Shown: positions 1 through 32,986 of the stretch, in pieces | How positions within the stretch are numbered: the first letter of the stretch is position 1 | Layout of the letters: each line of letters begins with the position of its first letter | From: a virus | Lineage: Duplodnaviria > Heunggongvirae > Uroviricota > Caudoviricetes | Direction: 5' to 3' (one strand) | IMG/VR virus record: IMGVR_UViG_2693429686_000003 | DNA: 34,347 bases | Notes under the pieces: model-generated | Database searches by the model: none | What the model saw: only the letters and a program-made list of their open reading frames with translations | What the model was told of the DNA's origin: nothing | Made by a program: the position numbers and the translations under genes

Positions 1-218
1 TGTAATGGGTTAAGTGATAACAGATGTCTGGAAATATAGGGGCAAATCCAATCGTCGCCGTATTCCCGTATTAACAGAGACCGTAGCCCGACGGGGAACT
101 CCTTCTGCGCGAGTGTGCGGGAATAATCAAAAACGATGCACACCGGGGTTACCGGGTACACATATTTCATCATGCCAGCGAGTCCGGTTCTGGCACGGAA
201 GAAACCGGACGTTATGAT

Positions 219-644
219 TTAGTGCGGAAATATTTGTGTAGTGTTCTGTATGTTCTCAGTAAAGAGTAATGAATTATCAAAGGTATAGTAATACCTTTTG
301 TTTTCGTGGATATTTGTAATCCATCTGAAAACCCCTGCTGTAGCAAGATTTTTCCTGTATTCGTAAAATGATAACTCTCCTGATTTGAATCCTTTTAAGG
401 TGGCTTCTATAAGGCATTTATTTTTTGAAAATCTTACATTTACAACCTTACCCTGTCCTTTTATTAAAACCGTATTATCGTTTTCAAGAACAAGATGAAT
501 ATTCTCTGTGGCTAAATAGTAAATGTAATGTGAGACATTGTGACGTTTTAGTTCAGAATAAAACCAGTGATAGTTTAAATTATTTCGCACTTTATCGAAT
601 ATTTGTTTAAAAATGGCAACCTGAGCCATTGTAGTACCTTCCAT
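219..644 (-). CDS. AT-rich prophage accessory protein of unknown function, possibly DUF1398 (YbcV/YdfO-like); true start may be the second Met at 629
   Basis: 141-aa ORF in the supplied track; visibly AT-rich against GC-rich structural genes; GGAAGG-like RBS before the internal Met at 629; family assignment is from memory of K-12 cryptic prophage genes and is unverified. Confidence 0.5.
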
Positions 645-686
645 GTGATATGAGGGGGCGTAGTCTGCACGATTATCTAAATTGCT

Positions 687-920
687 TCAATCTGGTCTAA
701 CCTGTTTTCTGAGCAATTCAGTAATGTCACTCTTTTCTTTGTTTGCTTCAGGCGAAACTCTTTTTTCTGAGCACAGTCTCCGGCGGCAGGCTTCAATGAC
801 CCAGGCTGAGAAATTCCCGGACCCTTTTTGAACAAGAGCGATGTTAATTTGTTCAATCATTTGGTTAGGAAAGCGGATGTTGCGGGTTGTTGTTCTGCGG
901 GTTCTGTTCTTCGTTGACAT
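687..920 (-). CDS. Small basic protein, YlcI/YnfO-like (DUF3950), possible ribbon-helix-helix DNA-binding fold
   Basis: 77-aa ORF starting MSTKNRTRRTTTRNIRFPNQMIEQINIAL, as recalled for YnfO-type proteins found next to terminase genes in cryptic lambdoid prophages; basic N-terminus then a predicted strand-helix pattern. Confidence 0.55.
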   Translation of the reverse strand: MSTKNRTRRTTTRNIRFPNQMIEQINIALVQKGSGNFSAWVIEACRRRLCSEKRVSPEANKEKSDITELLRKQVRPD

Positions 921-1104
921 GAGGTTGCCCTGTATTCAGTGTCGCTGATTTGTATTGTCTGAAGTTGTTTTTACGTTAAGTTGATGCAGATCAATTAATA
1001 CGATACCTGCGTCATAATTGATTATTTGACGTGGTTTGATGGCGTAGATGCACGTTGTGACATGTAGATGATAATTATTATCATTTTGCGGGTCCTTTCC
1101 GGCG

Positions 1105-1290
1105 ATCCGACAGGTTACGGGGCGGAAGGCGCGCGGGTTTTCGCTATTTATGACAATTTTCCGGTTTAAGGCGTTTCCGTTCTTCTTCGCCGTAACCTAA
1201 TGTTTTTATTTAAAACACCCCCTGAAAAGAAAGGAAACGACAGGTGCTGAAAACGGGCTTTTTGGCCTCTGTCGTTTCCTTTCTCTGTTT
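1105..1290 (+). promoter_or_regulatory. cos: cos packaging site: cosN at about 1120-1131, then cosB with R3 (about 1171-1190), an IHF-like AT-rich site (about 1199-1218), R2 (about 1229-1246) and R1 (about 1268-1284)
   Basis: Near-identity to the recalled lambda right-end/left-end junction (acaggttacgGGGCGG...CGCGGGTTTTCGCTATTTATGA...GGCGTTTCCGTTCTTCTTCG...GAAAGGAAACGACAGG...GTCGTTTCCTTTCTC) immediately upstream of nu1. Confidence 0.8.
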
Positions 1291-1308
1291 TTGTCCGTGG
1301 AATGAACA

Positions 1309-1828
1309 ATGGAAGTCAACAAAAAGCAGCTGGCTGACATTTTCGGTGCGAGTATCCGTACCATTCAGAACTGGCAGGAACAGGGAATGCCCGTTCTGCG
1401 AGGCGGTGGCAAGGGTAATGAGGTGCTTTATGACTCTGCCGCCGTTATAAGATGGTATGCCGAAAGGGATGCTGAAATTGAGAACGAAAAGCTGCGCCGG
1501 GAAGTTGAAGAACTGCGGCAGGCCAGCGAGACAGATCTCCAGCCAGGGACTATTGAGTACGAACGCCATCGACTTACGCGTGCGCAGGCCGACGCACAGG
1601 AGCTGAAAAATGCCAGAGACTCCGCTGAAGTGGTGGAAACCGCATTCTGTACTTTCGTGCTGTCGCGGATCGCAGGTGAAATTGCCAGTATTCTCGACGG
1701 GATCCCCCTGTCGGTGCAGCGGCGTTTTCCGGAACTGGAAAACCGACATGTTGATTTCCTGAAACGGGATATCATCAAAGCCATGAACAAAGCAGCCGCG
1801 CTGGATGAACTGATACCGGGGTTGCTGA

Positions 1829-1854
<26 letters not shown>
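1309..1854 (+). CDS. nu1: Terminase small subunit gpNu1
   Basis: 181-aa ORF essentially identical to recalled lambda Nu1 (MEVNKKQLADIFGASIRTIQNWQEQGMPVLRGGGKGNEVLYDSAAV...). Confidence 0.97.
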
Positions 1855-5535
<3,681 letters not shown>

Positions 5536-14221: not shown

Positions 14222-14547
14222 AAACCTTCCGCTGGAAAGTGAAACCCGGTATGGATGTGGCTTCGGCCCCTTCTGTAAGAAAGGTGCGCTTTGGTGATGG
14301 CTATTCCCAGCGAGCGCCTGCCGGGCTGAATGCCAACCTGAAAACGTACAGCGTGACGCTTTCTGTCCCCCGTGAGGAGGCCATGGTACTGGAGTCGTTT
14401 CTGGAAGAGCACGGGGGCTGGAAAGCCTTTCTGTGGACGCCGCCTTATGAGTGGCGGCAGATAAAGGTGACCTGCGCAAAATGGTCGTCGCGGGTCAGTA
14501 TGCTGCGTGTTGAGTTCAGCGCAGAGTTTGAACAGGTGGTGAACTGA
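14218..14547 (+). CDS. M: Tail tip protein gpM (copy 1)
   Basis: 109-aa ORF matching lambda gpM (MKTFRWKVKPGMDVAS...). Confidence 0.95.
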   Translation: MKTFRWKVKPGMDVASAPSVRKVRFGDGYSQRAPAGLNANLKTYSVTLSVPREEAMVLESFLEEHGGWKAFLWTPPYEWRQIKVTCAKWSSRVSMLRVEFSAEFEQVVN

Positions 14548-15245
14548 TGCAGGATATCCGGCAGGAAACACTGAATGAATGCACCCGTGCGGAGCAGTCG
14601 GCCAGCGTGGTGCTCTGGGAAATCGATCTGACAGAGGTCGGTGGAGAACGTTATTTTTTCTGTAATGAGCAGAACGAAAAAGGTGAGCCGGTCACCTGGC
14701 AGGGGCGACAGTATCAGCCGTATCCCATTCAGGGGAGTGGTTTTGAACTGAATGGCAAAGGCACCAGTACGCGCCCCACGCTGATGGTTTCTAACCTGTA
14801 CGGTATGGTCACCGGGATGGCGGAAGATCTACAGAGTCTGGTCGGCGGAACGGTGGTCCGGCGTAAGGTTTACGCCCGTTTTCTGGATGCGGTGAACTTC
14901 GTCAACGGAAACAGTGACGCCGATCCGGAGCAGGAGGTGATCAGCCGCTGGCGCATTGAGCAGTGCAGCGAACTGAGCGCGGTGAGTGCCTCTTTTGTAC
15001 TGTCCACGCCGACGGAAACAGATGGCGCTGTTTTTCCGGGACGTATCATGCTGGCCAACACCTGCACCTGGACCTATCGCGGCGATGAGTGCGGTTATCA
15101 CGGTCCGGCGGTCGCGGATGAATATGACCAGCCAACGTCCGACATCACGAAGGATAAATGCAGCAAATGCCTGAGTGGCTGTAAGTTTCGCAATAACGTC
15201 GGCAACTTTGGCGGCTTCCTTTCCATTAACAAACTTTCGCAGTAA
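14547..15245 (+). CDS. L: Tail tip protein gpL (copy 1)
   Basis: 232-aa ORF matching lambda gpL. Confidence 0.95.
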   Translation: MQDIRQETLNECTRAEQSASVVLWEIDLTEVGGERYFFCNEQNEKGEPVTWQGRQYQPYPIQGSGFELNGKGTSTRPTLMVSNLYGMVTGMAEDLQSLVGGTVVRRKVYARFLDAVNFVNGNSDADPEQEVISRWRIEQCSELSAVSASFVLSTPTETDGAVFPGRIMLANTCTWTYRGDECGYHGPAVADEYDQPTSDITKDKCSKCLSGCKFRNNVGNFGGFLSINKLSQ

Positions 15246-15250
15246 ATCCC

Positions 15251-15994
15251 ATGACAGAGACAGAATCAGCGATTCTGGCGCACGCCCGGCGATGTGCTCC
15301 AGCGGAGTCGTGCGGCTTCGTGGTAAGAACGCCGGAGGGGGAAAGATATTTCCCCTGCGTGAATATCTCCGGTGAGCCGGAGGCGTATTTCCGTATGTCG
15401 CCGGAAGACTGGCTGCAGGCAGAGATGCAGGGTGAGATTGTGGCACTGGTCCACAGCCACCCCGGTGGTCTGCCCTGGCTGAGTGAGGCCGACCGGCGGC
15501 TGCAGGTGCAGAGTGATTTGCCGTGGTGGCTGGTCTGCCGGGGGGCGATTCACAAGTTCCGCTGTGTGCCACATCTTACCGGGCGGCGCTTTGAGCACGG
15601 GGTGACGGACTGTTACACGCTGTTCCGGGATGCTTACCATCTGGCGGGGATTGAGATGCCGGATTTTCATCGTGAGGATGACTGGTGGCGTCACGGTCAG
15701 AATCTCTATCTGGATAATCTGGAGGCCACAGGGCTGTATCAGGTGCCGTTGTCAGCGGCGCAGCCGGGCGATGTGCTGCTGTGCTGTTTTGGTTCATCGG
15801 TGCCGAATCATGCCGCCATTTACTGTGGTGACGGCGAGCTGCTGCACCATATTCCTGAACAACTGAGCAAACGAGAGAGGTATACCGACAAATGGCAGCG
15901 ACGCACACACTCCCTCTGGCGTCACCGGGCATGGCACGCATCTGCCTTTACGGGGATTTGCAACGATTTGGCCGCCGCATCGACCTTCGTGTGA
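15251..15994 (+). CDS. K: Tail tip assembly protein gpK (copy 1), with MPN/JAB-like HSHPGG motif and NlpC/P60-like C-terminal region
   Basis: 247-aa ORF; residues 49 onward match lambda gpK as classically annotated (199 aa); the upstream extension starts 6 nt after the L stop. Confidence 0.92.
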   Translation: MTETESAILAHARRCAPAESCGFVVRTPEGERYFPCVNISGEPEAYFRMSPEDWLQAEMQGEIVALVHSHPGGLPWLSEADRRLQVQSDLPWWLVCRGAIHKFRCVPHLTGRRFEHGVTDCYTLFRDAYHLAGIEMPDFHREDDWWRHGQNLYLDNLEATGLYQVPLSAAQPGDVLLCCFGSSVPNHAAIYCGDGELLHHIPEQLSKRERYTDKWQRRTHSLWRHRAWHASAFTGICNDLAAASTFV

Positions 15995-16563
15995 AAACGG
16001 GTGCCGAAGCCATCCGGGCGATGGCCACACAGCTCCCTGCGTTTCGTCAGAAGCTGAGCGACGGCTGGTATCAGGTGCGTATTGCCGGGCAGGATGTTAG
16101 CACGTCCGGATTAACGGCACAGTTACATGAGGCTCTGCCTGACGGCGCTGTGATTCATATTGTTCCCAGAGTCGCCGGGGCCAAGTCAGGTGGTGTATTC
16201 CAGATTGTCCTGGGAGCAGCCGCCATTGCCGGATCATTCTTTACCGCCGGAGCCACCCTTGCAGCATGGGGGGCTGCCATTGGTGCCGGTGGTATGACCG
16301 GCATTCTGTTTTCTCTCGGTGCCAGTATGGTGCTCGGCGGTGTGGCTCAGATGCTGGCACCGAAAGCCAGAACTCCCCGCACACAGACAACGGATAACGG
16401 TAAGCAGAACACCTATTTCTCCTCACTGGATAACATGGTTGCCCAGGGCAATGTTATGCCTGTTCTGTATGGTGAAATGCGCGTGGGGTCACGTGTGGTA
16501 TCTCAGGAGATCAGCACGGCAGACGAAGGGGACGGTGGTCAGGTTGTGGTGATTGGTCGCTGA
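15892..16563 (+). CDS. I: Tail tip assembly protein gpI (copy 1)
   Basis: 223-aa ORF matching lambda gpI; overlaps the K 3' end by about 100 nt as in lambda. Confidence 0.93.
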   Translation: MAATHTLPLASPGMARICLYGDLQRFGRRIDLRVKTGAEAIRAMATQLPAFRQKLSDGWYQVRIAGQDVSTSGLTAQLHEALPDGAVIHIVPRVAGAKSGGVFQIVLGAAAIAGSFFTAGATLAAWGAAIGAGGMTGILFSLGASMVLGGVAQMLAPKARTPRTQTTDNGKQNTYFSSLDNMVAQGNVMPVLYGEMRVGSRVVSQEISTADEGDGGQVVVIGR

Positions 16564-16623
16564 TGCAAAATGTTTTATGTGAAATCGCCTCCGGGCGGTT
16601 TTATCGTTTATGGAGCATGACGA

Positions 16624-19152
<2,529 letters not shown>

Positions 19153-19196
19153 NTGAGGTGTACTGGCAATAGCGGACACTACCATTTGTTCTTTTT

Positions 19197-20015
19197 TTAA
19201 GCAGCCATCTGATGATATTTTTCCCTGAAGGCTGCCGGGGAGATATTCCCCAGACGAGAGTGACGACGCTGACGATTGTAGAAAATCTCAATGTATTCCC
19301 GTATTACTGAGATGGCTTCATCCCGGTTATTAAAACGATAGTGGCTCAGGCTCTCATTTTTCAGCGTTCCCCAGAAGCTTTCCATCGGAGCGTTGTCGTA
19401 ACAGTTACCTTTACGCGACATTGATGTTTTCAGACCAGACTGCTCCTGTATGACCCGGTAATCGTATGCGCAGTACTGTGAACCTCGATCAGAGTGGTGG
19501 ATTAGCCCGGCAGGTGGGCGCTGGCTCCTGAGCGCCATAAACAGGGCTTTACCTGTCAGCTCTTTTGTCATGCGCTCTCCCATGGCGTAGCCGACAATTT
19601 CGCACGTATAAACATCTTTGATGCCAGCGAGGTACAACCATCCCTCCTGTGTGGCAACATACGTCAGGTCCGCCACCCAGACCTGATTTGGTGCTGTAGG
19701 AGCGAACGTCTGGTTCAGCAGATTTGGCGCAACTGGCAGATTGTGGTTCGAGTTCGTAGTCGCTCTGAACTTGCGTTTCTGCTTACAGCGTAGCCTTAGC
19801 TCCTTACGAAGACGTGCCAGTCGGTCACGACCAACGATGATGCCATTCTCTGCCAGCTCCGTCTGGAGCCGCCGGGTTCCATATGTTTCGCGAGTGCGGA
19901 TATGTGCCACCTTAATCTCCAGTTTTAGCCGCTCATCACTTTGTTTTCTGTCTGAGGGTTCATGCTGTACCCAGTTGTAATAACCGCTCCTGGATACACC
20001 AAATACCTGACACAT
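19197..20015 (-). CDS. IS3-family transposase OrfB (DDE integrase domain); made in vivo as an OrfAB fusion
   Basis: 272-aa ORF with the recognisable IS3-family catalytic region (…VWVADLTYV…HSDRGSQY…GNCYDNAPMESFWGTLK…). Confidence 0.9.
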   Translation of the reverse strand: MCQVFGVSRSGYYNWVQHEPSDRKQSDERLKLEIKVAHIRTRETYGTRRLQTELAENGIIVGRDRLARLRKELRLRCKQKRKFRATTNSNHNLPVAPNLLNQTFAPTAPNQVWVADLTYVATQEGWLYLAGIKDVYTCEIVGYAMGERMTKELTGKALFMALRSQRPPAGLIHHSDRGSQYCAYDYRVIQEQSGLKTSMSRKGNCYDNAPMESFWGTLKNESLSHYRFNNRDEAISVIREYIEIFYNRQRRHSRLGNISPAAFREKYHQMAA

Positions 20016-20050
20016 CGCTTCAATGGGAAATTGTTGTCGCCATTGTTCGA

Positions 20051-20353
20051 TTAACGCGTATTTTTCAGCGACTCCTGTGCAAAATACGCTGTTGCTTTTT
20101 TTAATATATCTCGCTCAAGGCGAGCTTCATTTAACGCCTTACGCAGTTGCAGAATTTCAGATTCCAGTTCAGCCACCGTGCGGGAACCAGGAGTACCGAG
20201 CCCTTTTCTGGCGGCGGTAACCCATTGTCCTAAAGTGCCTTCAGGAAGAGATAATCGGGAAGCGCCTTCACTGATCGAAAGTTGATTTTCAGGAACCGTT
20301 CTGACAGCTTCGGCTTTGAACTCTTTAGAGTAACGTTGGGTTTTTCTGCTCAT
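20051..20353 (-). CDS. IS3-family transposase OrfA (HTH DNA-binding, leucine-zipper-like C-terminus)
   Basis: 100-aa ORF MSRKTQRYSKEFKAEAVRTV..., as recalled for IS600 OrfA. Confidence 0.88.
   Translation of the reverse strand: MSRKTQRYSKEFKAEAVRTVPENQLSISEGASRLSLPEGTLGQWVTAARKGLGTPGSRTVAELESEILQLRKALNEARLERDILKKATAYFAQESLKNTR
20096..20102 (-). promoter_or_regulatory. A7 slippery run (T7 on the plus strand) at the orfA 3' end: predicted -1 frameshift site for OrfAB
   Basis: The minus strand reads ...TTA AAA AAA GCA... in the orfA frame just before its stop; A6G/A7 motifs are the usual IS3-family frameshift signal. Confidence 0.6.
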
Positions 20354-20417
20354 TATTAGCTCCTTCTGATGCCATTCTATTTCAGGAAGGAGTGTCCGTT
20401 AAACTCAGGCTACCTCA

Positions 20418-20757
20418 GTCTGCTGATTTGAGTCGCTACAGTGGCACGGTGGTTAACCGTCCGACGTTTTTTGCTTTTGCAAAAGGCGCGGGTGTGATGG
20501 GGGAAGCGGGACCTGAAGCCATTCTGCCACTGCGTCGCGGTGCTGATGGTAAGCTGGGGGGTGTGGCGGATACTGGTGGTTCAGGCATGGTGATGTTTGC
20601 CCCGCAGTACAACATTGAGATCAATAACGATGGCACGAACGGGCAGATAGGTCCGGCTGCCCTGAAGGTGGTTTATGACCTCGGGAAAAAAGCGGCCGCG
20701 GACTTTATGCAACAGCAGGCCCGTGATGGTGGCCGGTTAAGTGGAGCATACCGGTAA
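20418..20757 (+). pseudogene. H: 3' fragment (about 110 codons) of a divergent tape-measure gene H, fused to the IS end
   Basis: The translation aligns with the C-terminus of gpH (…NNDGTNGQIGPAALKVVYD…RDGG…) but differs from H copy 1; its stop overlaps the M2 start as H/M do. Confidence 0.8.
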
Positions 20758-21086
20758 TGGAGACGTTTCACTGGAAAGTGCGCCCGGATATGAATGTGGT
20801 ATCAGAGCCGAAAGTGGTGACAGTGAAGCTGGGCGATGGTTATGAACAGCGTCGTGCGGCGGGACTGAATAACCAGTTGTCGACTTACAGCGTGAAGATA
20901 CGTGTTCGTAAAGGTGAACACCCATTTTTAAAAGCCTTTCTGGAACGGCACGGTGGCGTCCGCGCATTTCAGTGGACGCCACCTTATGACTGGAAGCCGA
21001 TCAGGGTGGTTTGTCGTAAATGGTCGGCAAGCGTGGGGGCGTTGTGGGTAACCATAACGGCAGATTTTGAACAGGTCGTGGCATAG
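20757..21086 (+). CDS. M: Tail tip protein gpM (copy 2, divergent allele)
   Basis: 109-aa ORF METFHWKVRPDMNVVSEP..., same length as copy 1 and visibly divergent from it. Confidence 0.9.
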   Translation: METFHWKVRPDMNVVSEPKVVTVKLGDGYEQRRAAGLNNQLSTYSVKIRVRKGEHPFLKAFLERHGGVRAFQWTPPYDWKPIRVVCRKWSASVGALWVTITADFEQVVA

Positions 21087-21095
21087 GAGGCTCTG

Positions 21096-21794
21096 ATGCA
21101 GGATATTCCACAGGAAACACATCATGAGACGACACGCCTCACTCAGTCAGCCCAGGTGGTGCTCTGGGAAATCGATCTGACAGAGGTCGGTGGAGAACGT
21201 TATTTTTTCTGTAATGAGCAGAACGAAAAAGGTGAGCCGGTTACCTGGCAGGGGCGGCAGTATCAGGCATACCCCATTCAGGGGACGGGATTTGAACTGA
21301 ACGGCAAGGGCAGTGCTGCCCGTCCGACACTGACGGTTTCTAACCTGCACGGAATGGTCACCGGGATGGCGGAAGACCTGCAGAGTCTGGTCGGCGGAAC
21401 GGTGGTCAGGCGTAAGGTTTACGCCCGTTTTCTGGATGCGGTGAACTTCGTCAACGGAAACAGCGACGCCGATCCGGAACAGGAGGTGATCAGCCGCTGG
21501 CGCATCGAGCAGTGCAGCGAACTGAGCGCGGTCAGTGCCTCTTTTGTGCTGGCCACACCAACGGAGACGGATGGCGCGGTTTTCCCGGGGCGTATCATGC
21601 TGGCGAATACCTGTATGTGGACTTACCGTTCTGATGAGTGTGGTTACACGGGCAGGGCAGTGGCTGACGAGTTCGACAAACCAACGACGGATATCCGGAA
21701 GGACAAATGCAGCAAGTGTATGCGCGGGTGTGAGTTGCGCAACAATACCGGTAATTTCGGCGGTTTCCTTTCCATCAATAAACTTTCTCAGTAA
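21096..21794 (+). CDS. L: Tail tip protein gpL (copy 2)
   Basis: 232-aa ORF; the N-terminal ~25 residues differ from L copy 1 and the rest is nearly identical. Confidence 0.93.
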   Translation: MQDIPQETHHETTRLTQSAQVVLWEIDLTEVGGERYFFCNEQNEKGEPVTWQGRQYQAYPIQGTGFELNGKGSAARPTLTVSNLHGMVTGMAEDLQSLVGGTVVRRKVYARFLDAVNFVNGNSDADPEQEVISRWRIEQCSELSAVSASFVLATPTETDGAVFPGRIMLANTCMWTYRSDECGYTGRAVADEFDKPTTDIRKDKCSKCMRGCELRNNTGNFGGFLSINKLSQ

Positions 21795-21798
21795 ATCC

Positions 21799-22542
21799 AT
21801 GACACAGACAGAATCAGCGATTCTGGCGCACGCCCGGCGATGTGCGCCAGCGGAGTCGTGTGGCTTCGTGGTAAGAACGCCGGAGGGAGACAGGTATCTT
21901 CCCAGCGAGAATATCTCCGGTGAGCCGGAGGAACGGTTCCGGATGGCTCCGGAGGACTGGCTGCGGGCACAAATGCAGGGTGAGATTGTGGCGCTGGTCC
22001 ACAGTCATCCCGGTGGTCTGCCCTGGCTGAGTGAGGCTGACCGGCGGCTGCAGGTGCAGAGTGATTTGCCGTGGTGGCTGGTCTGCCGGGGGGCGATTCA
22101 CAAGTTCCGCTGTGTGCCGCATCTCACCGGGCGGCGCTTTGAGCACGGGGTGACGGACTGTTACACGCTGTTCCGGGATGCTTATCATCTGGCAGGGATT
22201 GAGATGCCGGATTTTCATCGCGGGGATGACTGGTGGCGTAACGGTCAGAATCTCTATCTTGACAATATGGAGGTGACGGGTTTTTACCGTGTCGCACTGA
22301 CAGAGGCACAGCCGGGCGATGTGCTGCTGTGCTGTTTTGGTTCATCGGTGCCGAATCATGCCGCCATTTACTGTGGTGACGGCGAGCTGCTGCACCATAT
22401 TCCTGAACAACTGAGCAAACGAGAGAGGTATACCGACAAATGGCAGCGACGCACACACTCCCTCTGGCGTCACCGGGCATGGCGCGCATCTGCCTTTACG
22501 GGGATTTACAACGATTTGGTCGCCGCATCGACCTTCGTGTGA
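21799..22542 (+). CDS. K: Tail tip assembly protein gpK (copy 2)
   Basis: MTQTESAILAHARRCAPAESCGF... begins at the ATG 5 nt after the L2 stop; nearly identical to K copy 1. Confidence 0.92.
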   Translation: MTQTESAILAHARRCAPAESCGFVVRTPEGDRYLPSENISGEPEERFRMAPEDWLRAQMQGEIVALVHSHPGGLPWLSEADRRLQVQSDLPWWLVCRGAIHKFRCVPHLTGRRFEHGVTDCYTLFRDAYHLAGIEMPDFHRGDDWWRNGQNLYLDNMEVTGFYRVALTEAQPGDVLLCCFGSSVPNHAAIYCGDGELLHHIPEQLSKRERYTDKWQRRTHSLWRHRAWRASAFTGIYNDLVAASTFV

Positions 22543-23081
22543 AAACGGGGGCTGAAGCCATCCGGGCACTGGCCACACAGCTCCCGGCGTTTCGTCAGAA
22601 ACTGAGTGACGGCTGGTATCAGGTGCGCATTGCCGGGCGTGATGCAGGTGAAACCGAATTGTCTGCCCGTCTTAATGAGCCGCTGGCAAATGGTGCAGTG
22701 ATCCACATAGTACCGCGTCTGGTGGGAGCTAAAAGTGGCGGTGTGTTTCAGGCGGTGCTGGGGGCGGCTGTTATGGCGGTTGCTATATGGATGCCGGGGG
22801 TAGGAATTATGGCGAGTAATCTGCTGTTTTCTCTCGGTGCCAGTATGACGCTTGGCGGTGTTGCACAGATGCTGGCACCGAAAGCCAGAACTCCCCGTAC
22901 ACAGACAACGGATAACGGTAAGCAGAACACGTATTTCTCGTCACTGGATAACATGGTTGCCCAGGGCAATGTTCTGCCCGTTCTGTACGGTGAAATGCGC
23001 GTGGGGTCACGTGTGGTTTCTCAGGAGATCAGCACGGCAGACGAAGGGGATGGTGGTCAGGTTGTGGTGATTGGTCGCTGA
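22440..23081 (+). CDS. I: Tail tip assembly protein gpI (copy 2; 213 aa with a divergent central segment)
   Basis: Matches gpI at both ends; the central hydrophobic segment differs from copy 1. Confidence 0.92.
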   Translation: MAATHTLPLASPGMARICLYGDLQRFGRRIDLRVKTGAEAIRALATQLPAFRQKLSDGWYQVRIAGRDAGETELSARLNEPLANGAVIHIVPRLVGAKSGGVFQAVLGAAVMAVAIWMPGVGIMASNLLFSLGASMTLGGVAQMLAPKARTPRTQTTDNGKQNTYFSSLDNMVAQGNVLPVLYGEMRVGSRVVSQEISTADEGDGGQVVVIGR

Positions 23082-23141
23082 TGCAAAATGTTTTATGTGA
23101 AACCGCCTGCGGGCGGTTTTGTCGTTTATGGAGCGTGAGGA

Positions 23142-26100
23142 ATGGGTAAAGGCAGCAGTAAGGGGCATACCCCGCGCGAAGCGAAGGACAACCTGAAATC
23201 CACGCAGTTGCTGAGTGTGATTGATGCCATCAGCGAAGGGCCGGTTGACGGTCCGGTGGATGGATTAAAAAGCGTGCTGCTGAACGGTACGCCGGTCCTG
23301 GACAGCGAGGGGAAGACAAACTTTTCCGGTGTTACGGTGGTGTTCCGTGCAGGTGAGCAGGAGCAGACACCGCCGGAGGGTTTTGAATCCTCCGGCTCCG
23401 AGACGGTGCTGGGTACGGAAGTGAAATATGACACGCCGATCACCCGGACCATCACGTCGGCAAACATCGACCGTCTGCGCCTGACCTTCGGTGTGCAGGC
23501 ACTGGTGGAAACCACCTCAAAGGGTGACCGGAATCCGTCGGAAGTCCGCCTGCTGGTTCAGATACAGCGTAACGGTGGCTGGGTGACGGAAAAAGACATC
23601 ACCATTAAGGGCAAAACCACTTCGCAGTATCTGGCCTCGGTGGTGGTGGGTAACCTGCCGCCGCGCCCGTTTAATATCCGGATGCGCAGGATGACACCGG
23701 ACAGCACCACAGACCAGCTGCAGAACAAAACGCTCTGGTCGTCGTACACCGAAATCATCGATGTGAAACAGTGCTACCCGAACACGGCGCTGGTCGGCGT
23801 GCAGGTGGATTCAGAGCAGTTCGGTAACCAGCAGGTGAGTCGCAATTATCATCTTCGCGGGCGCATTCTGCAGGTGCCGTCGAACTATAACCCGCAGACG
23901 CGGCAATACAGCGGTATCTGGGACGGAACGCTTAAGCCAGCATACAGCAACAACATGGCCTGGTGTCTGTGGGACATGCTCACTCATCCGCGCTACGGCA
24001 TGGGGAAACGTCTTGGTGCGGCAGATGTGGACAAATGGGCGCTGTATGTCATCGGCCAGTACTGCGACCAGTCAGTGACGGACGGATTTGGCGGCACGGA
24101 GCCGCGCATCACCTGTAACTCTTACCTGACCACACAGCGTAAGGCGTGGGATGTTCTCAGTGATTTCTGCTCGGCGATGCGCTGTATGCCGGTATGGAAC
24201 GGACAGATGCTGACGTTCGTGCAGGACCGACCGTCGGATAAGGTGTGGACCTATAACCGCAGTAATGTGGTGATGCCGGACGATGGCGCGCCGTTCCGCT
24301 ACAGCTTCAGCGCCCTGAAGGACCGCCATAATGCCGTTGAGGTGAACTGGATTGACCCAGATAACGGCTGGGAGACGGCGACAGAGCTTGTGGAGGATAC
24401 GCAGGCCATTGCCCGTTACGGTCGTAATGTCACGAAGATGGATGCCTTTGGCTGTACCAGCCGGGGGCAGGCACACCGAGCCGGGCTGTGGCTGATTAAA
24501 ACGGAACTGCTGGAGACGCAGACCGTGGATTTCAGCGTGGGTGCTGAAGGGCTTCGTCATGTACCGGGCGATGTCATTGAAATCTGCGATGATGATTATG
24601 CCGGTATCAGCACCGGTGGTCGCGTACTGGCGGTGAACAGCCAGACCCGGACGCTGACGCTCGACCGTGAAATCACGCTGCCGTCCTCCGGTACCACGCT
24701 GATAAGCCTGGTTGACGGAAGTGGCAATCCGGTCAGCGTGGAGGTCCAGTCCGTCACCGACGGCGTGAAGGTGAAAGTGAGCCGGGTTCCTGACGGCGTT
24801 GCAGAATACAGCGTGTGGGGGCTGAAGCTGCCGACGCTGCGCCAGCGTCTGTTCCGCTGCGTGAGTATCCGTGAGAACGACGACGGCACGTATGCCATCA
24901 CCGCCGTGCAGCATGTGCCGGAAAAAGAGGCCATCGTGGATAACGGGGCACACTTTGACGGTGACCGGCGCGGCACGGTGAATGGTGTCACGCCGCCAGC
25001 GGTGCAGCATCTGACCGCCGAAGTCACCGCAGACAGCGGGGAATATCAGGTGCTGGCGCGATGGGACACGCCGAAGGTGGTGAAGGGTGTGAGCTTCCTG
25101 CTTCGCCTGACCGTGGCAGCGGACGACGGCAGTGAGCGGCTGGTCAGCACAGCCAGGACGACGGAAACCACATACCGCTTCAGGCAGCTGGCGCTGGGGA
25201 ATTACAGTCTGACAGTCCGGGCGGTAAATGCCCGGGGGCAGCAGGGCGATCCGGCGTCGGTATCGTTCCGGATTGCGGCACCGGCAGCGCCTGTCACTAT
25301 TGAACTGATACCGGGGTATTTTCAGATAACGGCGGTCCCGAAACTGGCTGTATATGACCCGACGGTGCAGTTTGAGTTCTGGTTTTCGGAAAAGCGGATT
25401 GCGGATATCAGGCAGGTTGAAACCACAGCACGCTATCTTGGCACGGCGCTGTACTGGATAGCCGCCAGTATCAATATCAGGCCGGGCCATGATTATTATT
25501 TTTACGTTCGCAGTGTGAACACCGTTGGCAAATCGGCATTTGTGGAGGCCATCGGTCGGGCGAGCGATGATGCAGAAGGTTATCTGAATTTTTATAAAGG
25601 GTTGATCAATAAAACGCATCTCGGCAAGGAGTTGTGGACGCAGATTGATAACGGTCAGCTTGCGCCGGACCTGACTGAAATCAGGACGTCCATTACGAAT
25701 GTCAGCAATGAAATCACGCAAACCGTCAATAAAAAACTGGAAAATCAGAGTGCTGCAATCCAGCAGATACAGAAAGTTCAGGTTGATACAAATAATAACC
25801 TGAACAGCATGTGGGCTGTGAAGCTGCAACAGATGAAGGACGGACGCCTTTATATTGCGGGTATCGGTGCCGGTATTGAGAATACGCCAGCAGGAATGCA
25901 GAGTCAGGTGCTGCTGGCGGCAGACAGGATTGCGATGATTAATCCTGCGAATGGCAACACAAAGCCGATGTTTGTTGGTCAGGGCGATCAGATATTCATG
26001 AACGACGTGTTCCTGAAATGCCTGACGGCTCCGACCATTACCAGCGGCGGTAATCCTCCGGCATTTTCCCTGACACCTGGCGGACGGCTGACGGCGAAAA

Positions 26101-26621
26101 ATGCCGATATCAGCGGTAACGTGAACGCGAACTCCGGGACGCTCAACAACGTCACGATTAATAAGAACTGTCGGGTTCTGGGAAAATTGTCCGCGAACCA
26201 GATTGAAGGCGATCTCGTTAAAACAGTGGGCAAACCTTTCCCACGGGACTCCCGGGCACCGGAGAGGTGGCCATCAGGGACCATTACCGTCAGGGTTTAT
26301 GACGATCAGCCGTTTGATCGGCAAATTGTTATTCCCGCGGTGGCGTTTCGCGGTGCTAAACATGAGCGGAAGAATAACAATATTTATTCGTCATGCCGCC
26401 TGATAGTGAAGAAAAACGGTGCTGAAATTTATAACCGAACGACCCTGGATAATACGCTGATATATACGGGTGTTATTGATATGCCTGCCGGTCACGGTCA
26501 CATGACGCTGGAGTTTTCTGTATCGGCATGGCTGGTAAATGGCTGGTATCCCACAGCAAGTATCAGCGATTTGCTGGTTGTGGTGATGAAGAAAGCCACT
26601 GCAGGCATCACGATTAGCTGA
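23142..26621 (+). CDS. J: Central tail fibre/host-specificity protein gpJ (copy 2, intact, 1159 aa)
   Basis: Full-length ORF collinear with lambda gpJ (1132 aa); the N-terminal ~840 residues are almost identical to J copy 1. Confidence 0.96.
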
Positions 26622-26640
26622 ATTTTATAACCCAGATACG

Positions 26641-26666
26641 GGCACCAGAAATGGTGCCTTTTTTAT
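26641..26666 (+). terminator. Rho-independent terminator after J copy 2 (ggcacc-agaaat-ggtgcc + T6)
   Basis: Perfect 6-bp stem with T-run, 20 nt after the J2 stop and before the lom RBS. Confidence 0.7.
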
Positions 26667-26688
26667 TGCAGAAAAGCGAGAGGTAATT

Positions 26689-27288
26689 ATGCGTAAAGTT
26701 TGTGCAGCCATTTTGTCCGCAGCCATTTGCCTGGCCGTATCCGGTGCGCCTGCATGGGCGTCTGAACATCAGTCCACGCTGAGCGCCGGGTATCTTCAGA
26801 CCCATACTGATATGCCAGGCAGCGATGACCTGAAGGGCATTAACGTGAAATACCGTTATGAGTTTACGGACACGCTGGGGCTGATTACGTCATTCAGTTA
26901 TGCCAACGCTGAAGATGAGCAAAAAACGCATTACAGCGATACCCGCTGGCATGAGGATTCCGTGCGTAACCGCTGGTTCAGCGTGATGGCGGGGCCGTCT
27001 GTGCGCGTGAATGAATGGTTCAGCGCGTATGCGATGGCGGGCGTGGCTTACAGCCGTGTGTCGACCTTCTCCGGGGATTATCTCCGCGTAACTGACAACA
27101 AGGGGAAAACGCACGATGTGCTGACCGGAAGTGATGGCGGTCGCCACAGCAACACGTCTCTGGCGTGGGGGGCTGGCGTGCAGTTTAACCCGACCGAATC
27201 CGTGGCCATTGACCTTGCTTATGAAGGTTCCGGCAGTGGTGACTGGCGCACTGACGGTTTCATCGTGGGTGTCGGTTATAAGTTCTGA
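26689..27288 (+). CDS. lom: Outer-membrane beta-barrel protein Lom (Ail/Lom family), copy 1, intact
   Basis: 199-aa ORF with signal peptide (MRKVCAAILSAAICLAVSGAPAWA) and a C-terminal aromatic residue; lambda Lom-like. Confidence 0.93.
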   Translation: MRKVCAAILSAAICLAVSGAPAWASEHQSTLSAGYLQTHTDMPGSDDLKGINVKYRYEFTDTLGLITSFSYANAEDEQKTHYSDTRWHEDSVRNRWFSVMAGPSVRVNEWFSAYAMAGVAYSRVSTFSGDYLRVTDNKGKTHDVLTGSDGGRHSNTSLAWGAGVQFNPTESVAIDLAYEGSGSGDWRTDGFIVGVGYKF

Positions 27289-27314
27289 TTAGCCAGGTAA
27301 CACAGTGTTATGAC

Positions 27315-27340
27315 TGCCCGCTGGTTCAGGCGGGCTTTTT
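27315..27340 (+). terminator. Terminator-like hairpin after lom copy 1 (gcccgc-tggttcag-gcgggc + T5)
   Basis: Inverted repeat plus T-run directly after the lom stop. Confidence 0.55.
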
Positions 27341-27351
27341 GTGGGGTGAAT

Positions 27352-27678
27352 ATGGCAGTAAAGATTTCAGGTGTACTGAAAGATGGGGCGGGTAAACCTG
27401 TCGTAAATTGTGCGATTGAACTGCGGGCCAGAAGAACCAGTCCGACCGTTGTGGCACACGTTGTTGCCACTTGCGTGACGGACAATAACGGTGCTTATGT
27501 GATTGAGGCTGAGCCGGGGTATTACGAGGTTGCGCTTCACTGTAACGGCTGGCAGCCAACCCGTGTCGGGGATATTGATGTGGCACCGACTGATGCACCG
27601 GGGACACTGAACGCGTTTCTGAATGCACCAAAGGATGGTGATTTACGTCCGGAGGTGATGAAGTGTCAGCGCCAGTGA
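27352..27678 (+). pseudogene. stf: 5' fragment of a side tail fibre gene (stf allele B, about 104 codons), cut by the IS21-like end
   Basis: [17 protein letters not shown]... matches the conserved Stf N-terminus and diverges from the full stf at 29903; after …DLRPEVMK the sequence becomes the IS end (TGTCAGCGCCAGTG…). Confidence 0.8.
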
Positions 27679-27907
27679 TATAAGACGGTAATTCGCCATT
27701 TGGATTGTCCGCTCCACCCAACATGTTGTTTCCTTAAGGTTCTCACACCAGAAAGGACATCAACATGCTGAGCAGAGAGGACTTTTACATGATAAAGCAA
27801 ATGCGCCAGCAGGGCGCGTACATCGTCGATATTGCGACTCAGATTGGTTGCTCTGAACGGACGGTCAGACGCTACCTCAAATACCCTGAACCGCCAGCCA
27901 GAAAGAC
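27664..27907 (+). mobile_element. istA: Left end of an IS21-family element, including the first 47 codons of istA (27765-27907), truncated by the scaffold gap
   Basis: The terminus starts TGTCAGC…; ORF MLSREDFYMIKQMRQQGAYIVDIATQIGCSERTVRRYLKYPEPPARK matches my recollection of the IS21 IstA HTH N-terminus; it runs into NNNN. Confidence 0.6.
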
Positions 27908-27911
27908 NNNN
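27908..27911. other. Assembly gap (NNNN), a scaffold join
   Basis: Four ambiguous bases; sequence context changes abruptly from the IS21 istA 5' end to mid-J. Confidence 0.95.
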
Positions 27912-29251
27912 TTGAGCTGACGCCGGGCTATTTTCAGATAACCGCCACGCCGCATCTTGCGGTTTATGATCCGACGGTACAGTTTGAGTTCTGGTTCTCG
28001 GAAAAGCGGATTGCGGATATCAGGCAGGTTGAAACCACAGCACGCTATCTTGGCACGGCGCTGTACTGGATAGCCGCCAGTATCAATATCAAACCGGGCC
28101 ATGATTATTACTTTTATATCCGCAGTGTGAACACCGTTGGCAAATCGGCATTCGTGGAGGCTGTTGGTCAGCCGAGTGATGATGCATCCGGTTATCTGGA
28201 TTTTTTCAAAGGCGAGATAGGGAAAACCCATCTGGCTCAGGAGCTGTGGACGCAGATTGATAACGGTCAGCTTGCGCCTGACCTGGCTGAAATCAGGACG
28301 TCCATTACGGATGTCAGCAATGAAATCACGCAGACCGTCAATAAGAAACTGGAAGACCAGAGTGCGGCAATTCAGCAGATACAGAAGGTTCAGGTTGATA
28401 CAAATAATAACCTGAACAGCATGTGGGCTGTGAAGCTGCAGCAGATGCAGGACGGACGCCTTTATATCGCGGGTATTGGTGCCGGTATTGAGAACACCCC
28501 TGACGGCATGCAGAGTCAGGTGCTGCTGGCGGCGGACAGGATTGCGATGGTTAATCCTGCGAATGGCAACACAAAACCGATGTTTGTTGGTCAGGGCGAT
28601 CAGATATTCATGAACGACGTGTTCCTGAAACGCCTGACGGCCCCCACCATTACCAGCGGTGGAAATCCATCGGCATTTTCCCTGACTCCGGACGGAAAGC
28701 TGACCGCTAAAAATGCGGATATCAGTGGCAGTGTGAATGCGAACGCCGGGACGCTCAACAATGTCACGGTAAATGAAAACTGTACGATTAAGGGCATGCT
28801 GGAGGCGACTCAGGTCAGAGGTGACTTCGTTAAAGCTGTATCCAAATCATTTCCGAAACAGGCTGGTACGTGGGGTAACACGGAAACACCAAACGGGACG
28901 GTTACAGTCACCATAAGCGATGATCATAACTTTGACCGCCAGATTATTATTCCGCCCATTATTTTTAACGGTATAGCGTATGACGATCCGGGGAGCGGAA
29001 ATAACCCAGGAGGCACGCGATACACGGGTTATGGTTTTGAAGTTCGCAAAAACGGCGTATTAATCGCATCCAGAGAAACTAAAGGTGCCATTCCCGGTAG
29101 TTACAGTGCAGTTATTGATATGCCTAGTGGTGGTGGTAGCGTCACTCTGGAGTTTAAGATTTTCCAGAAAGGCAATCAGGGGGCAGGCAATATCACCGAC
29201 TGTACGGTGATTGTGACCAAAAAAGCGGCTTCCGGCATCAGTATTCGTTGA
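27912..29251 (+). pseudogene. J: 3' portion of J (allele 1), residues about 775 to the end, with a C-terminal domain unlike J copy 2
   Basis: 27912-28118 is identical to 18946-19152 (end of truncated J copy 1) and continues in the J frame (ORF 28127-29251 lies within it); the last ~145 residues differ from J copy 2. Confidence 0.85.
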
Positions 29252-29273
29252 AATATTTATAACCCCAATAAAT

Positions 29274-29299
29274 GGCGTCAGGAATGACGCCTTTTTTAT
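29274..29299 (+). terminator. Rho-independent terminator after J allele 1 (ggcgtca-ggaa-tgacgcc + T6)
   Basis: Perfect 7-bp stem and T-run; the stem sequence differs from the 26641 terminator but keeps pairing; downstream sequence is identical. Confidence 0.7.
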
Positions 29300-29321
29300 T
29301 GCAGAAAAGCGAGAGGTAATT

Positions 29322-29838
29322 ATGCGTAAAGTTTGTGCAGCCATTTTGTCCGCAGCCATTTGCCTGGCCGTATCCGGTGCGCCTGCATGGGCGTCTGAAC
29401 ATCAGTCCACGCTGAGCGCGGGGTATCTTCATGCCCGGACCAACGTTCCCGGCAGTGATGATCTGAACGGGATTAACGTGAAATACCGTTATGAGTTTAC
29501 GGATACGCTGGGGCTGGTGACGTCATTCAGCTATGCAGGAGACAAGAATCGCCAGCTGACCCGTTACAGCGATACCCGCTGGCATGAAGATTCCGTGCGT
29601 AACCGCTGGTTCAGCGTGATGGCGGGGCCGTCTGTGCGCGTGAATGAATGGTTCAGCGCGTATGCGATGGCGGGTGTGGCTTACAGCCGTGTGTCGACTT
29701 TTTCCGGGGATTATATCCGCGTAACTGACAATAAGGGGAAAACGCACGATGTGCTGACCGGAAGTGATGACGGTCGCCACAGCAACACGTCTCTGGCGCA
29801 CTGACGGTTTCATCGTGGGTGTCGGTTATAAATTCTGA
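29322..29838 (+). pseudogene. lom: lom copy 2 with an 83-bp internal deletion giving a frameshift and premature stop at 29804
   Basis: Identical to lom copy 1 in most of its length; sequence jumps from …acgtctctggcg to cactgacggtttcatcg…, omitting 83 bp present in copy 1, with the 6-bp repeat ctggcg at both deletion borders. Confidence 0.75.
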
Positions 29839-29891: not shown

Positions 29892-29902
29892 GTGGGGTGA
29901 AT

Positions 29903-32900: not shown

Positions 32901-32986
32901 GACACACCATCACCGTTAACGCTGCTGGTAACGCGGAAAACACCGTCAAAAACATCGCATTTAACTATATTGTGAGGCTCGCATAA
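29903..32986 (+). CDS. stf: Side tail fibre protein Stf: conserved N-terminus, long Ala/Ser/Thr-rich repeat region, two phage-tail-fibre repeats (…[14 protein letters not shown](S/T)[11 protein letters not shown]…), His-rich C-terminus
   Basis: N-terminus ([30 protein letters not shown]…) and C-terminus (…[31 protein letters not shown]) match lambda Stf; the ORF is 1029 aa from GTG 29897 against 774 aa in lambda. Confidence 0.93.

Follow-up and report, generated by a model that had tools for sequence, protein, structure and literature searches.

The left end of the 34,347-nucleotide window (the whole stretch of phage DNA analysed here) carries two minus-strand genes that belong to familiar families of lambda and of most E. 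coli genomes and that are already known as a pair: a DUF3950 (YlcI/YnfO) gene and, downstream of it, a DUF1398 (YdfO/YbcV/YcgX/lambdap78) gene (Table 1). Both are real, selected genes and not chance ORFs (median dN/dS of 0.067 for codons 1-50 of the DUF3950 gene, with only four non-synonymous changes at dS values of up to 1.5; median dN/dS of 0.22 for the DUF1398 gene). With slightly better than even confidence, the region is interpreted as the Qin-type right-arm accessory region of a lambda-like prophage; its two genes would be separate accessory genes read in the direction opposite to the late operon, and the DUF1398 gene would be regulated by the host.

Table 1. Features of the accessory region and its flanks (window positions; minus-strand motifs are given from the higher to the lower position).
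Feature	Position	Strand	Remarks
Conserved block of about 110 nt	51..160	+	bounds the variable cargo slot on the left
Hairpin GTCCGGTT-N13-AACCGGAC	182..210		9 nt past the DUF1398 stop
DUF1398 gene (YdfO/YbcV/YcgX/lambdap78 family)	219..629	-	136 aa; the 141-aa version starts at 644
Conserved promoter/operator block ahead of the DUF1398 gene	661..706 (or 661..697)	-	includes two sequence blocks invariant across paralogues
Candidate -35 TTGAAG	690..685	-	17-nt spacer to candidate -10 CAGACT (667..662)
PdhR-box-like sequence AACAGGTTAGACCAGAT	706..690	-	overlap with the stop codon (TGA, 689..687) of the DUF3950 gene
DUF3950 gene (YlcI/YnfO family)	687..920	-	77 aa; PF13132 (E 2e-20) and NF041551
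13-nt inverted repeat ATCAATTAATACG / CGTCATAATTGAT (candidate operator or promoter element)	990..1022		70-100 nt ahead of the DUF3950 gene
cosN, 12-nt cohesive end GGGCGGAAGGCG (lambda: GGGCGGCGACCT)	1120..1131	+	right edge of the region
Nu1	1309..1854		

The cargo slot and the mosaic junction within the DUF3950 gene

The position of cosN was assigned by comparison with the lambda cos sequence; the alignment with lambda (record J02459) stops at window position 1119 (lambda base 48502). Given the positions of cosN and Nu1, the sequence-only reading was right to place the gene pair just upstream of cos; the lysis region, which it had named as the other neighbour, lies outside the window (the window edge is 218 nt past the DUF1398 stop) and is found immediately to the left in near-identical prophages and phages. 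The proposed slot for accessory cargo between the lysis genes and cos was likewise borne out: its limits are the conserved left-hand block, which Nu1-type phages, HNH-type phages and lambda share at 82-100% identity and which shows a weak RNA-like consensus structure, and approximately codon 50 of the DUF3950 gene; elsewhere the slot is occupied by lambdap79, a TonB_C protein or small ORFs. As in morons, the DUF1398 gene combines an atypical G+C content (31.4% versus 54.7% for the window) with insertion between conserved phage genes and variable occupancy of the site. A search for known RNA families within positions 1..1400 gave no match.

The product of the DUF3950 gene was recognized by the Pfam model (72.8 bits versus a cut-off of 25) and by the NCBIfam model YlcI_YnfO_N (35.2 bits versus a cut-off of 30), and near-identical copies bear the YlcI/YnfO name in NCBI annotation. 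The protein, called basic in the earlier reading, is very basic (pI 10.9) and has no hydrophobic segment; its first 50 residues are nearly invariant and its C-terminal tail is hypervariable. The AF2 model of the single chain contains helices at residues 19-32 and 34-52 (pLDDT about 85); codons 1-50 probably encode a ribbon-helix-helix domain, which would dimerize and bind DNA. A mosaic junction falls inside the gene at about codon 45-50: DNA homology to HNH-type phages spans only position 920 to approximately 773-786, and the G+C content (44.4% for the entire gene) shifts from 48.7% in codons 1-50 to 36.9% in the tail. On account of these coinciding changes the variable tail was assigned to the AT-rich DUF1398 segment, and the junction accounts for the variability of the DUF3950 tails.

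A consensus scan for a promoter of the 77-aa gene found none. The upstream inverted repeat is present with both halves in lambda (DE3 locus) and in two further loci of the comparison (L157, L005) and with one half only in L058, and neither half occurs in the HNH-type phages compared; no operator upstream of the DUF3950 gene is common to Nu1-type and HNH-type phages.

The DUF1398 gene and its flanking elements

The DUF1398 protein matched Pfam PF07166 over profile positions 1-119 of 119 (E 3e-43; 147 bits versus a cut-off of 22) and E. coli YdfO, whose structure has been available since 2006 (PDB 2HH8), with E 1e-69 over 140 residues (approximately 80% identity by eye). Both families had been guessed correctly from the sequence. 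The two minus-strand ORFs then described (219..644, 141 aa; 687..920, 77 aa) are present, as is the AT-rich and Tyr/Asn-rich character of the former (Asn 11% and Tyr 7.4% in the 136-aa protein). However, its start is most likely the inner ATG at 629 and not that at 644, since a Shine-Dalgarno sequence (GGAAGG, 642..637) is located 7 nt upstream of the inner ATG and none precedes the outer one, the NCBI annotation of near-identical E. coli copies, e.g. of strain D3, gives a CDS of 411 nt, and diverged paralogues lack the equivalent of the outer ATG. The protein has neither a signal peptide nor a hydrophobic segment, and only G84, G99, W103 and Y114 are conserved across phyla; from its sequence, it appears to be small, soluble and devoid of conserved catalytic residues. 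Its predicted structure (pLDDT 48) gave no usable model for comparison with the alpha+beta fold of 2HH8, and a profile search for remote relatives among solved structures returned 2HH8 only. An exhaustive representative search yielded 189 clusters at E < 1e-3, many of them fragments; a word-indexed search started from the Epilithonimonas member retrieved 41 close relatives only.

The labels "head protein" (PHROG 413) and "envelope protein" (COG5562) that are attached to DUF1398 found no support: the gene lies outside the structural module and on the opposite strand, its product is devoid of signal peptide and hydrophobic segment, homologues are present in non-phage chromosomes, and the knock-down of lambdap78 leaves plating unreduced (PMC10695390). 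Both labels appear to be inherited annotation. The listing of YdfO as essential in one in-silico paper is likely an artefact of a short multi-copy gene.

Upstream of the gene, the blocks GAYCWGATTGA and AT..TGCA.ACTA are invariant in the lambda, DLP12-type, Qin-type and ycgX-type paralogues, the coding sequences of which are saturated at synonymous sites. The DUF1398 gene is therefore predicted to carry its own promoter, from which it would be transcribed; a simple consensus scan proposed an alternative promoter at 699..672. The PdhR-box-like sequence recurs at the 3' end of Qin ynfO, where only the central spacer base differs, and genomic SELEX placed PdhR sites at the homologous positions in Qin and DLP12 (PMC7660256); a scan of viral contigs with the 14-mer AGACCAGATTGAAG hit mostly unrelated-looking contigs, consistent with chance matches. 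The downstream hairpin, a possible terminator, appears in predicted folds and is conserved in lambda and L058; it was missed by the terminator scan, and a clear U tract is absent on the minus strand.

Distribution of the two families and competing interpretations

The 1320-nt region including cos and the start of Nu1 was matched in 5106 of 5426 complete E. coli genomes (in 2634 over at least 80% of the query). Among phage records, DUF3950 was found in 152 and DUF1398 in 43, and at least 109 records contain DUF3950 without DUF1398: it adjoins HNH-type packaging genes with other cargo downstream, and in HNH-type and Stx phages it occurs without DUF1398. Conversely, lone DUF1398 genes reside in chromosomes of Escherichia (ycgX type), Citrobacter, Klebsiella, Kluyvera, Raoultella, Salmonella diarizonae, Epilithonimonas and Chryseobacterium, and the diverged chromosomal copies have no DUF3950 gene within 4 kb and no conserved neighbour. 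Many apparently non-enterobacterial genome and metagenome loci that consisted of lambda-identical contigs of about 3.5 kb or 48.5 kb were disregarded as probable lambda contamination.

In the window, the two genes are separated by 57 nt (from the DUF3950 stop to the start at 629) on the same strand and share one reading frame, with the TGA and 14 codons between the ORFs. A natural in-frame fusion exists in which the TGA is changed to a Trp codon (P0013, 233 aa). Programmed stop-codon read-through and a fusion protein were nevertheless ruled out, because the start-to-start distance varies (290, 291, 292 or 293 nt in 78 of 80 related viral contigs) and the TGA is kept in all 80.

The sequence-only reading had compared the pair to a type II toxin-antitoxin or regulator-effector layout; in such a system, the 77-aa ribbon-helix-helix protein would repress or neutralize, or both, a DUF1398 toxin or abortive-infection effector. 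Several features agree with this proposal: a small basic gene of this type lies directly upstream at a short distance, its conserved N-terminal domain and variable tail are reminiscent of ribbon-helix-helix antitoxins, its 3' end overlaps the DUF1398 promoter block, adjacency is maintained in 79 of 80 contigs of the 77-aa type and in one diverged pair (64 aa plus 136 aa), and the P0013 fusion joins both products; the DUF3950 copy present in nearly every E. coli could, moreover, act in trans. Obligate co-inheritance was not found, however, in view of the unequal phage counts and the many chromosomes, including those of Flavobacteriales, with DUF1398 only; nor do the genes appear to form a single autoregulated bicistronic operon, as the promoter block stands ahead of DUF1398 alone and the pair is interrupted in lambda and DLP12 by a gene on the opposite strand. 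The tail variability reflects the mosaic junction inside the gene, the reading-frame register between the genes is not conserved, and DUF1398 is without a catalytic motif. None of the 5027 defence-system models of PADLOC-DB 2.0 matched significantly (the 141-aa protein reached E 0.025 with Csx23 as its best hit, and the 77-aa protein had no hit), and for overexpressed YdfO and YbcV the publications report scored phenotypes and no lethality (PMC4077768, PMC2853380). A toxin-antitoxin function is thus considered very unlikely, and the two genes are regarded as separate accessory genes; repeated adjacency in lambdoid phages together with the P0013 fusion makes some functional link between them possible. 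Assignment to well-characterised non-defence families, named in the sequence-only reading as the outcome that would refute it, did not result either, since both families, although confidently assigned, are uncharacterised.

A role of one or both genes in conflicts between phages or with defence systems, whether by excluding superinfecting phages, by defending the lysogen or by inhibiting a host defence system, is unlikely but deserves more weight than a toxin-antitoxin function. The DUF1398 gene is AT-rich, prophage-borne and non-essential, and the same slot elsewhere holds lambdap79, which activates the Vulcan NADase defence system; escape phages delete lambdap79 by recombination with Qin, which generates the arrangement seen in the window (bioRxiv 10.64898/2026.09.04.749371). 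The defence-model search mentioned above speaks against such a role, as do the DUF1398 homologues that are ordinary genes of Flavobacteriales chromosomes and of varied enterobacterial surroundings; full-text literature searches, furthermore, returned neither a functional study of either family nor a published phage phenotype for either gene. Alternatively, the 77-aa protein might not be cargo at all and might act as a DNA-binding packaging accessory on cos or on terminase expression. This would agree with the constant position of DUF3950 directly beside a packaging module (Nu1/cos or HNH/terminase), with its reported presence in capsid-forming phage-inducible islands that encode their own terminase (PMC13612085), with the very strong purifying selection on its N-terminal domain and with the inverted repeat between gene and cos. 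The gene runs, however, in the direction opposite to the late operon. Its upstream region shows no conservation between Nu1-type and HNH-type phages, and HNH-type phages lack the inverted repeat. Packaging of lambda DNA in vitro needs terminase, IHF and gpFI, and a packaging factor of the DUF3950 kind is not known for lambda; the cryptic prophages DLP12 and Qin, which no longer form virions, keep the gene. A packaging function is in consequence judged highly improbable.

Under the favoured interpretation of two separate accessory genes, the very basic first 50 residues of the YlcI/YnfO protein would probably assemble into a DNA-binding ribbon-helix-helix dimer of the Arc/Mnt kind; the DUF3950 gene would represent the fixed element of the slot beside the packaging module of Nu1-type or HNH-type terminases, its C-terminal tail changing with the cargo downstream, and the DUF1398 gene would be a self-contained AT-rich unit of promoter, coding sequence and hairpin. 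The latter seems dispensable for lytic growth, as lambdap78 was non-essential in a CRISPRi screen (PMC10695390), and its K-12 homologues are under metabolic and stress control of the host and are transcribed from the cryptic prophages (PMC4077768, PMC7660256): ybcV mRNA was 10-fold lower in a pdhR mutant (PMC7660256), and ydfO was induced 12- to 116-fold by ionic liquid (PMC4077768). Transcription in K-12 is also reported for the DUF3950 gene ylcI (PMC12288877). YdfO overexpression is cited as raising oxidative-stress resistance (PMC4077768), and a glycogen phenotype was scored for YbcV in an overexpression screen (PMC2853380). The DUF1398 protein would most likely bind a host component and thereby alter the lysogen's physiology or its tolerance of stress; this modulation of host physiology draws on the few K-12 expression and overexpression reports. 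The fold and DNA binding of the 77-aa protein, the activity of the promoter, prophage expression and any advantage for the host are inferred.

A farther-reaching version of this proposal is distinctly unlikely, though less so than a toxin-antitoxin function: the YlcI/YnfO N-terminal domain could be a conserved Arc-like repressor that serves, next to the packaging genes in lambdoid phages and in capsid-forming islands, as a fixed anchor for a slot in which cargo is exchanged, the 3' end of its gene being overwritten by incoming cargo; it might control cargo promoters or a phage or host target in the lysogen, with DUF1398 as a host-regulated module binding and modulating a specific host or phage protein, e.g. 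in stress signalling or phage conflict. If true, this would provide the first function for ybcV, ydfO, ycgX, ylcI and ynfO of E. coli K-12 and for two lambda ORFs.

Significance and relation to known systems

The gene pair is not new: lambda has it, as do the DLP12 and Qin prophages of E. coli K-12 and the majority of sequenced E. coli. A function for the two families would close a small gap in our picture of the best-studied phage and account for five K-12 genes. The slot is biologically active, as lambdap79 is a reported defence trigger and recombination with Qin yields the arrangement of the window (bioRxiv 10.64898/2026.09.04.749371). For annotation, the results offer the mosaic junction inside DUF3950 as the explanation of its divergent tails and leave the structural labels on DUF1398 unsupported.

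The Arc and Mnt repressors of phage P22 are, like the 77-aa protein, small basic proteins encoded in the late region of a temperate phage, and appear to share with it the order strand, helix, helix, with the strand motif N(I/L)R(F/W)P and the G-x-S turn aligned in register; the similarity is non-significant (P 0.015 and 0.21). The lambda morons bor and lom resemble the DUF1398 gene in their atypical G+C content, promoter-like element, downstream hairpin, location between conserved modules and dispensability for lytic growth; in contrast to the outer-membrane proteins Bor and Lom with their known phenotypes, however, the DUF1398 protein is apparently soluble, and its possible terminator is non-canonical.

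Among the direct relatives, lambda possesses lambdap78 and a mostly unannotated 64-aa DUF3950 ORF at about 48138..48302, and DLP12 the genes ybcV, ybcW and ylcI. Both share with the window the DUF1398 gene (76% identity), the N-terminal domain of DUF3950 (94-96%), the left block and cos/Nu1 as flanks, and the promoter block of DUF1398; they differ by the plus-strand gene lambdap79 or ybcW between the two genes and by a different tail on the 64-aa DUF3950 protein. The window thus lacks lambdap79, the reported Vulcan trigger (bioRxiv 10.64898/2026.09.04.749371). The ynfO-ydfO pair of Qin (E. coli K-12, beside nohA) agrees with the window in families, order, strand and adjacency and lies next to a Nu1 homologue. 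Qin YnfO also comprises 77 aa and ends in an almost identical tail, with two differences among the last 27 residues (P0122/P0123); the DUF1398 protein of the window shows 76% identity to the Qin-type copies of loci L007 and L008. Unlike Qin, the prophage of the window has a complete set of packaging, head and tail genes, together with a variant cosN.

Gene layout, family identity and structure

The sequence-only reading had placed two small minus-strand genes upstream of cos, and both open reading frames were confirmed (see table); its description of the larger gene as AT-rich and Tyr/Asn-rich likewise held (G+C of 31.4% for 219..629, 44.4% for 687..920 and 54.7% for the entire window; 11% Asn, 7.4% Tyr). 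The first 218 nt look non-coding, an AT-rich spacer lies between the 77-aa gene and cos, and Nu1 and terminase A come after cos. The match to the lambda record stops exactly at window 1119; the cohesive end that follows reads GGGCGGAAGGCG between lambda-like flanking cos sequences, differs at 6 of 12 positions from the lambda cohesive end, GGGCGGCGACCT, and is presumably common to phages PhiR49_1, Kati and Chlobot (region identity 97.7-98.6%). ATG 629 is the most likely start of the larger gene (136 aa) in place of 644, because it has a GGAAGG Shine-Dalgarno motif 7 nt upstream (none precedes ATG 644), the NCBI annotation of near-identical E. coli prophages gives a 411-nt CDS, and diverged paralogues are missing the upstream ATG. 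Farther along the window, the tail-tip region (14547-29800) is duplicated and rearranged.

Features of the window
Feature	Position	Strand	Remarks
Slot left edge, ~110-nt conserved block	51..160	plus	common to lambda, Nu1-type and HNH-type phages
Larger ORF (DUF1398)	219..644	minus	141 aa
Candidate -10, CAGACT	667..662	minus	17-nt spacer to -35
Candidate -35, TTGAAG	690..685	minus	fits conserved blocks
Alternative promoter	699..672	minus	consensus scan
PdhR-box-like AACAGGTTAGACCAGAT	706..690	minus	matches reported PdhR SELEX site inside ynfO-ydfO (PMC7660256)
77-aa ORF (DUF3950)	687..920	minus	77 aa
cosN, 12-nt cohesive-end sequence	1120..1131		placed by lambda comparison
Nu1	1309..1854	plus	
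Terminase A	1829..3754	plus	
First L/K/I/J set	14547-19172		J split at 18282, truncated by IS3-family element
IS3-family element	19197-20353		rve and HTH_Tnp_1 domains
Second L/K/I/J set, intact	21096-26621		90-95% identity; ends with full 1159-aa J
lom	26689-27288		
Third J copy	28127-29251		C-terminal fragment
Second lom-like copy	29255-29798		
stf	29897-32986		
tfa	32986-33567		

The suggested Pfam families were borne out: the larger protein covered the entire DUF1398 model (E 3e-43) and aligned over its full length with YdfO of E. coli (PDB 2HH8, NMR structure; E 1e-69), and the 77-aa protein (pI 10.9) matched DUF3950 (E 2e-20) and NCBIfam YlcI_YnfO_N. The pair of uncharacterised families is already known; the published literature searched gave no functional assignment for either, and neither protein contains a hydrophobic segment. 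For DUF1398, the labels "head protein" (PHROG) and "putative envelope protein" (older annotation) were rejected as unsupported, because the gene lies on the opposite strand away from the structural module, its product lacks both a signal peptide and a membrane segment, non-phage chromosomes also carry homologues, and knock-down of the lambda homologue leaves plating unreduced (lambdap78 was non-essential in a CRISPRi screen; PMC10695390).

According to the AF2 model of the 77-aa protein (mean pLDDT 70.6, core ~85), an extended segment (13-18) is followed by helices 19-32 and 34-52; a further helix, 60-72, has lower confidence. Foldseek, a PDB profile search and Pfam returned no fold relatives; hhalign placed NIRFP/NLRWP and the G-x-S turn in register with Arc (P 0.015; Mnt: P 0.21), and a ribbon-helix-helix fold is probable. 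In DUF1398, conservation across phyla is limited to G84, G99, W103 and Y114, which argues against an enzyme; weak mutual alignment of its N- and C-terminal halves (P 0.0065) hints at an internal duplication. Both genes are under purifying constraint: across unique DNA variants of the compared loci, median dN/dS was 0.067 for codons 1-50 of the 77-aa gene (only four non-synonymous differences in the most distant pairs, dS ~1.5) and 0.22 for DUF1398.

Mosaic junction and putative DUF1398 control region

DNA homology between the window and HNH-type lambdoid phages (HNH endonuclease beside the packaging genes) begins exactly at the ATG of the DUF3950 gene (920) and ends at 773-786, i.e. codon 45-50; at that junction G+C falls from 48.7% to 36.9%, and in protein alignments residues 1-50 are nearly invariant, the tail being unrelated across lineages. 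These observations indicate that the tail is encoded by AT-rich cargo DNA, which, judged from its sequence, also carries the predicted DUF1398 promoter. The block bounding the slot on its left (82-100% conserved) lies in lambda between bor and lambdap78. RNAalifold predicted a long plus-strand stem with mostly one-sided G-U changes and two compensatory pairs; the covariation term was small, the single-sequence fold not unusual, and Rfam gave no match. In one phage record a 53-aa minus-strand ORF is annotated on this block, but HNH-type copies carry a 1-nt indel difference.

In a 100-nt upstream alignment of DUF1398 copies (window, lambda, DLP12-type, Qin-type, ycgX-type, Citrobacter, other Escherichia), the blocks GAYCWGATTGA and AT..TGCA.ACTA (window 661..697) were invariant, even though synonymous sites in the coding sequences have reached saturation; DUF1398 would thus possess its own control region with a predicted promoter. 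In a pdhR mutant, mRNA of ybcV, the DLP12 copy, was down 10-fold (PMC7660256). Since distant paralogues keep only the right half of the PdhR-box-like palindrome, PdhR may not be the principal regulator. An imidazolium ionic liquid induced the Qin copy, ydfO, 12- to 116-fold in a paper that also cites YdfO overexpression for greater oxidative-stress resistance (PMC4077768). ydfO responds to DicC overexpression as well. Overexpression of ybcV altered glycogen content (PMC2853380).

Independent genes or a functional pair

The toxin-antitoxin layout proposed from the sequence, with a DUF3950 protein and a DUF1398 effector, is in keeping with the common adjacency of both genes in lambdoid phages (79 of the 80 viral contigs that carry the 77-aa type; a diverged 64-aa and 136-aa pair is likewise adjacent). 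It did not withstand the tests of co-occurrence and operon structure, and is improbable: DUF3950 occurred in 152 and DUF1398 in 43 records of the GenBank phage collection, so that at least 109 phages, Stx-converting phages included, have DUF3950 alone, and DUF1398 stands solitary in chromosomes; a conserved upstream block with a candidate promoter also precedes DUF1398 copies. In HNH-type contigs, DUF3950 lies 41 nt from the HNH start, and what comes next is not DUF1398: small ORFs, a TonB_C protein and the lysis cassette occupy that place. Conversely, DUF1398 genes of 34-53% identity (Escherichia, Citrobacter, Klebsiella, Kluyvera, Raoultella, Pseudocitrobacter, Salmonella diarizonae) had neither DUF3950 nor Nu1 within 4 kb, their neighbours being ordinary, non-conserved chromosomal genes; in Flavobacteriales, DUF1398 adjoins an esterase or is flanked by DUF885 and a DinB-like gene. 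The pairing is not obligatory; a looser regulatory link may exist. In some E. coli lineages, TGA to TGG in the 77-aa gene (645-686 region) gives a 233-aa DUF3950-DUF1398 fusion, whose sequence represents a cluster of 761, not necessarily all fusions.

A role of one or both genes in phage conflict is rather unlikely: the defence-system model library gave nothing significant for either protein. In its favour, the slot can carry cargo involved in such conflict: lambdap79, the plus-strand gene between the lambda pair, activates Vulcan, a defence system, and phages that escape it lose lambdap79 via recombination with Qin (bioRxiv 10.64898/2026.09.04.749371), resulting in the gene order of the window. 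YlcI/YnfO proteins are listed among those of Enterobacter capsid-forming islands (PMC13612085); a packaging-related role for the 77-aa protein is nevertheless very doubtful. The best-supported reading is that of two independent accessory genes in one cargo slot: a conserved DNA-binding protein, probably Arc-like, encoded by a gene with a 3' end that varies with the cargo, and an AT-rich, self-contained, host-regulated DUF1398 gene that would act in the lysogen instead of in lytic growth.

Distribution and relation to lambda, DLP12 and Qin

Of 5426 complete E. coli genomes, 5106 matched the 1320-nt region that spans the pair, cos and the Nu1 start, at a median of three places each; in 2634 a match extended over at least 80% of this region. 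Phages PhiR49_1, Kati, Chlobot and ev099 carry near-identical copies. Lambda right-arm DNA with both genes also occurred in assemblies labelled Pseudomonas, Kitasatospora, Brevibacillus, Flavobacterium, Staphylococcus, spider and others (loci L011-L034 and L043-L047, and many ~3.5-kb ENA contigs among proteins P0018-P0120; typically ~3.5 or 48.5 kb). Contamination by lambda control or cos-vector DNA is the probable source and makes the host range of both families look too wide. The third K-12 DUF1398 paralogue, ycgX, is not part of a prophage (PMC3509220; loci L039-L042); in E. coli and Shigella it is chromosomal, flanked by bluR and iraM, and its upstream promoter block is that of the prophage copies, although the proteins are only 44% identical.

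By sequence comparison, the gene pair of the window is the lambda/DLP12/Qin module. In lambda, the plus-strand lambdap79 comes after lambdap78 (76% identity to the window copy), and then, ~200 nt from cos, a 64-aa YlcI-type ORF that neither the lambda nor the DE3 reference record lists. DLP12 shares this arrangement (ybcV, ybcW, ylcI), with convergent transcript overlap of ybcW and ylcI in K-12 RNA-seq (PMC12288877), whereas Qin has that of the window, ynfO being followed directly by ydfO.
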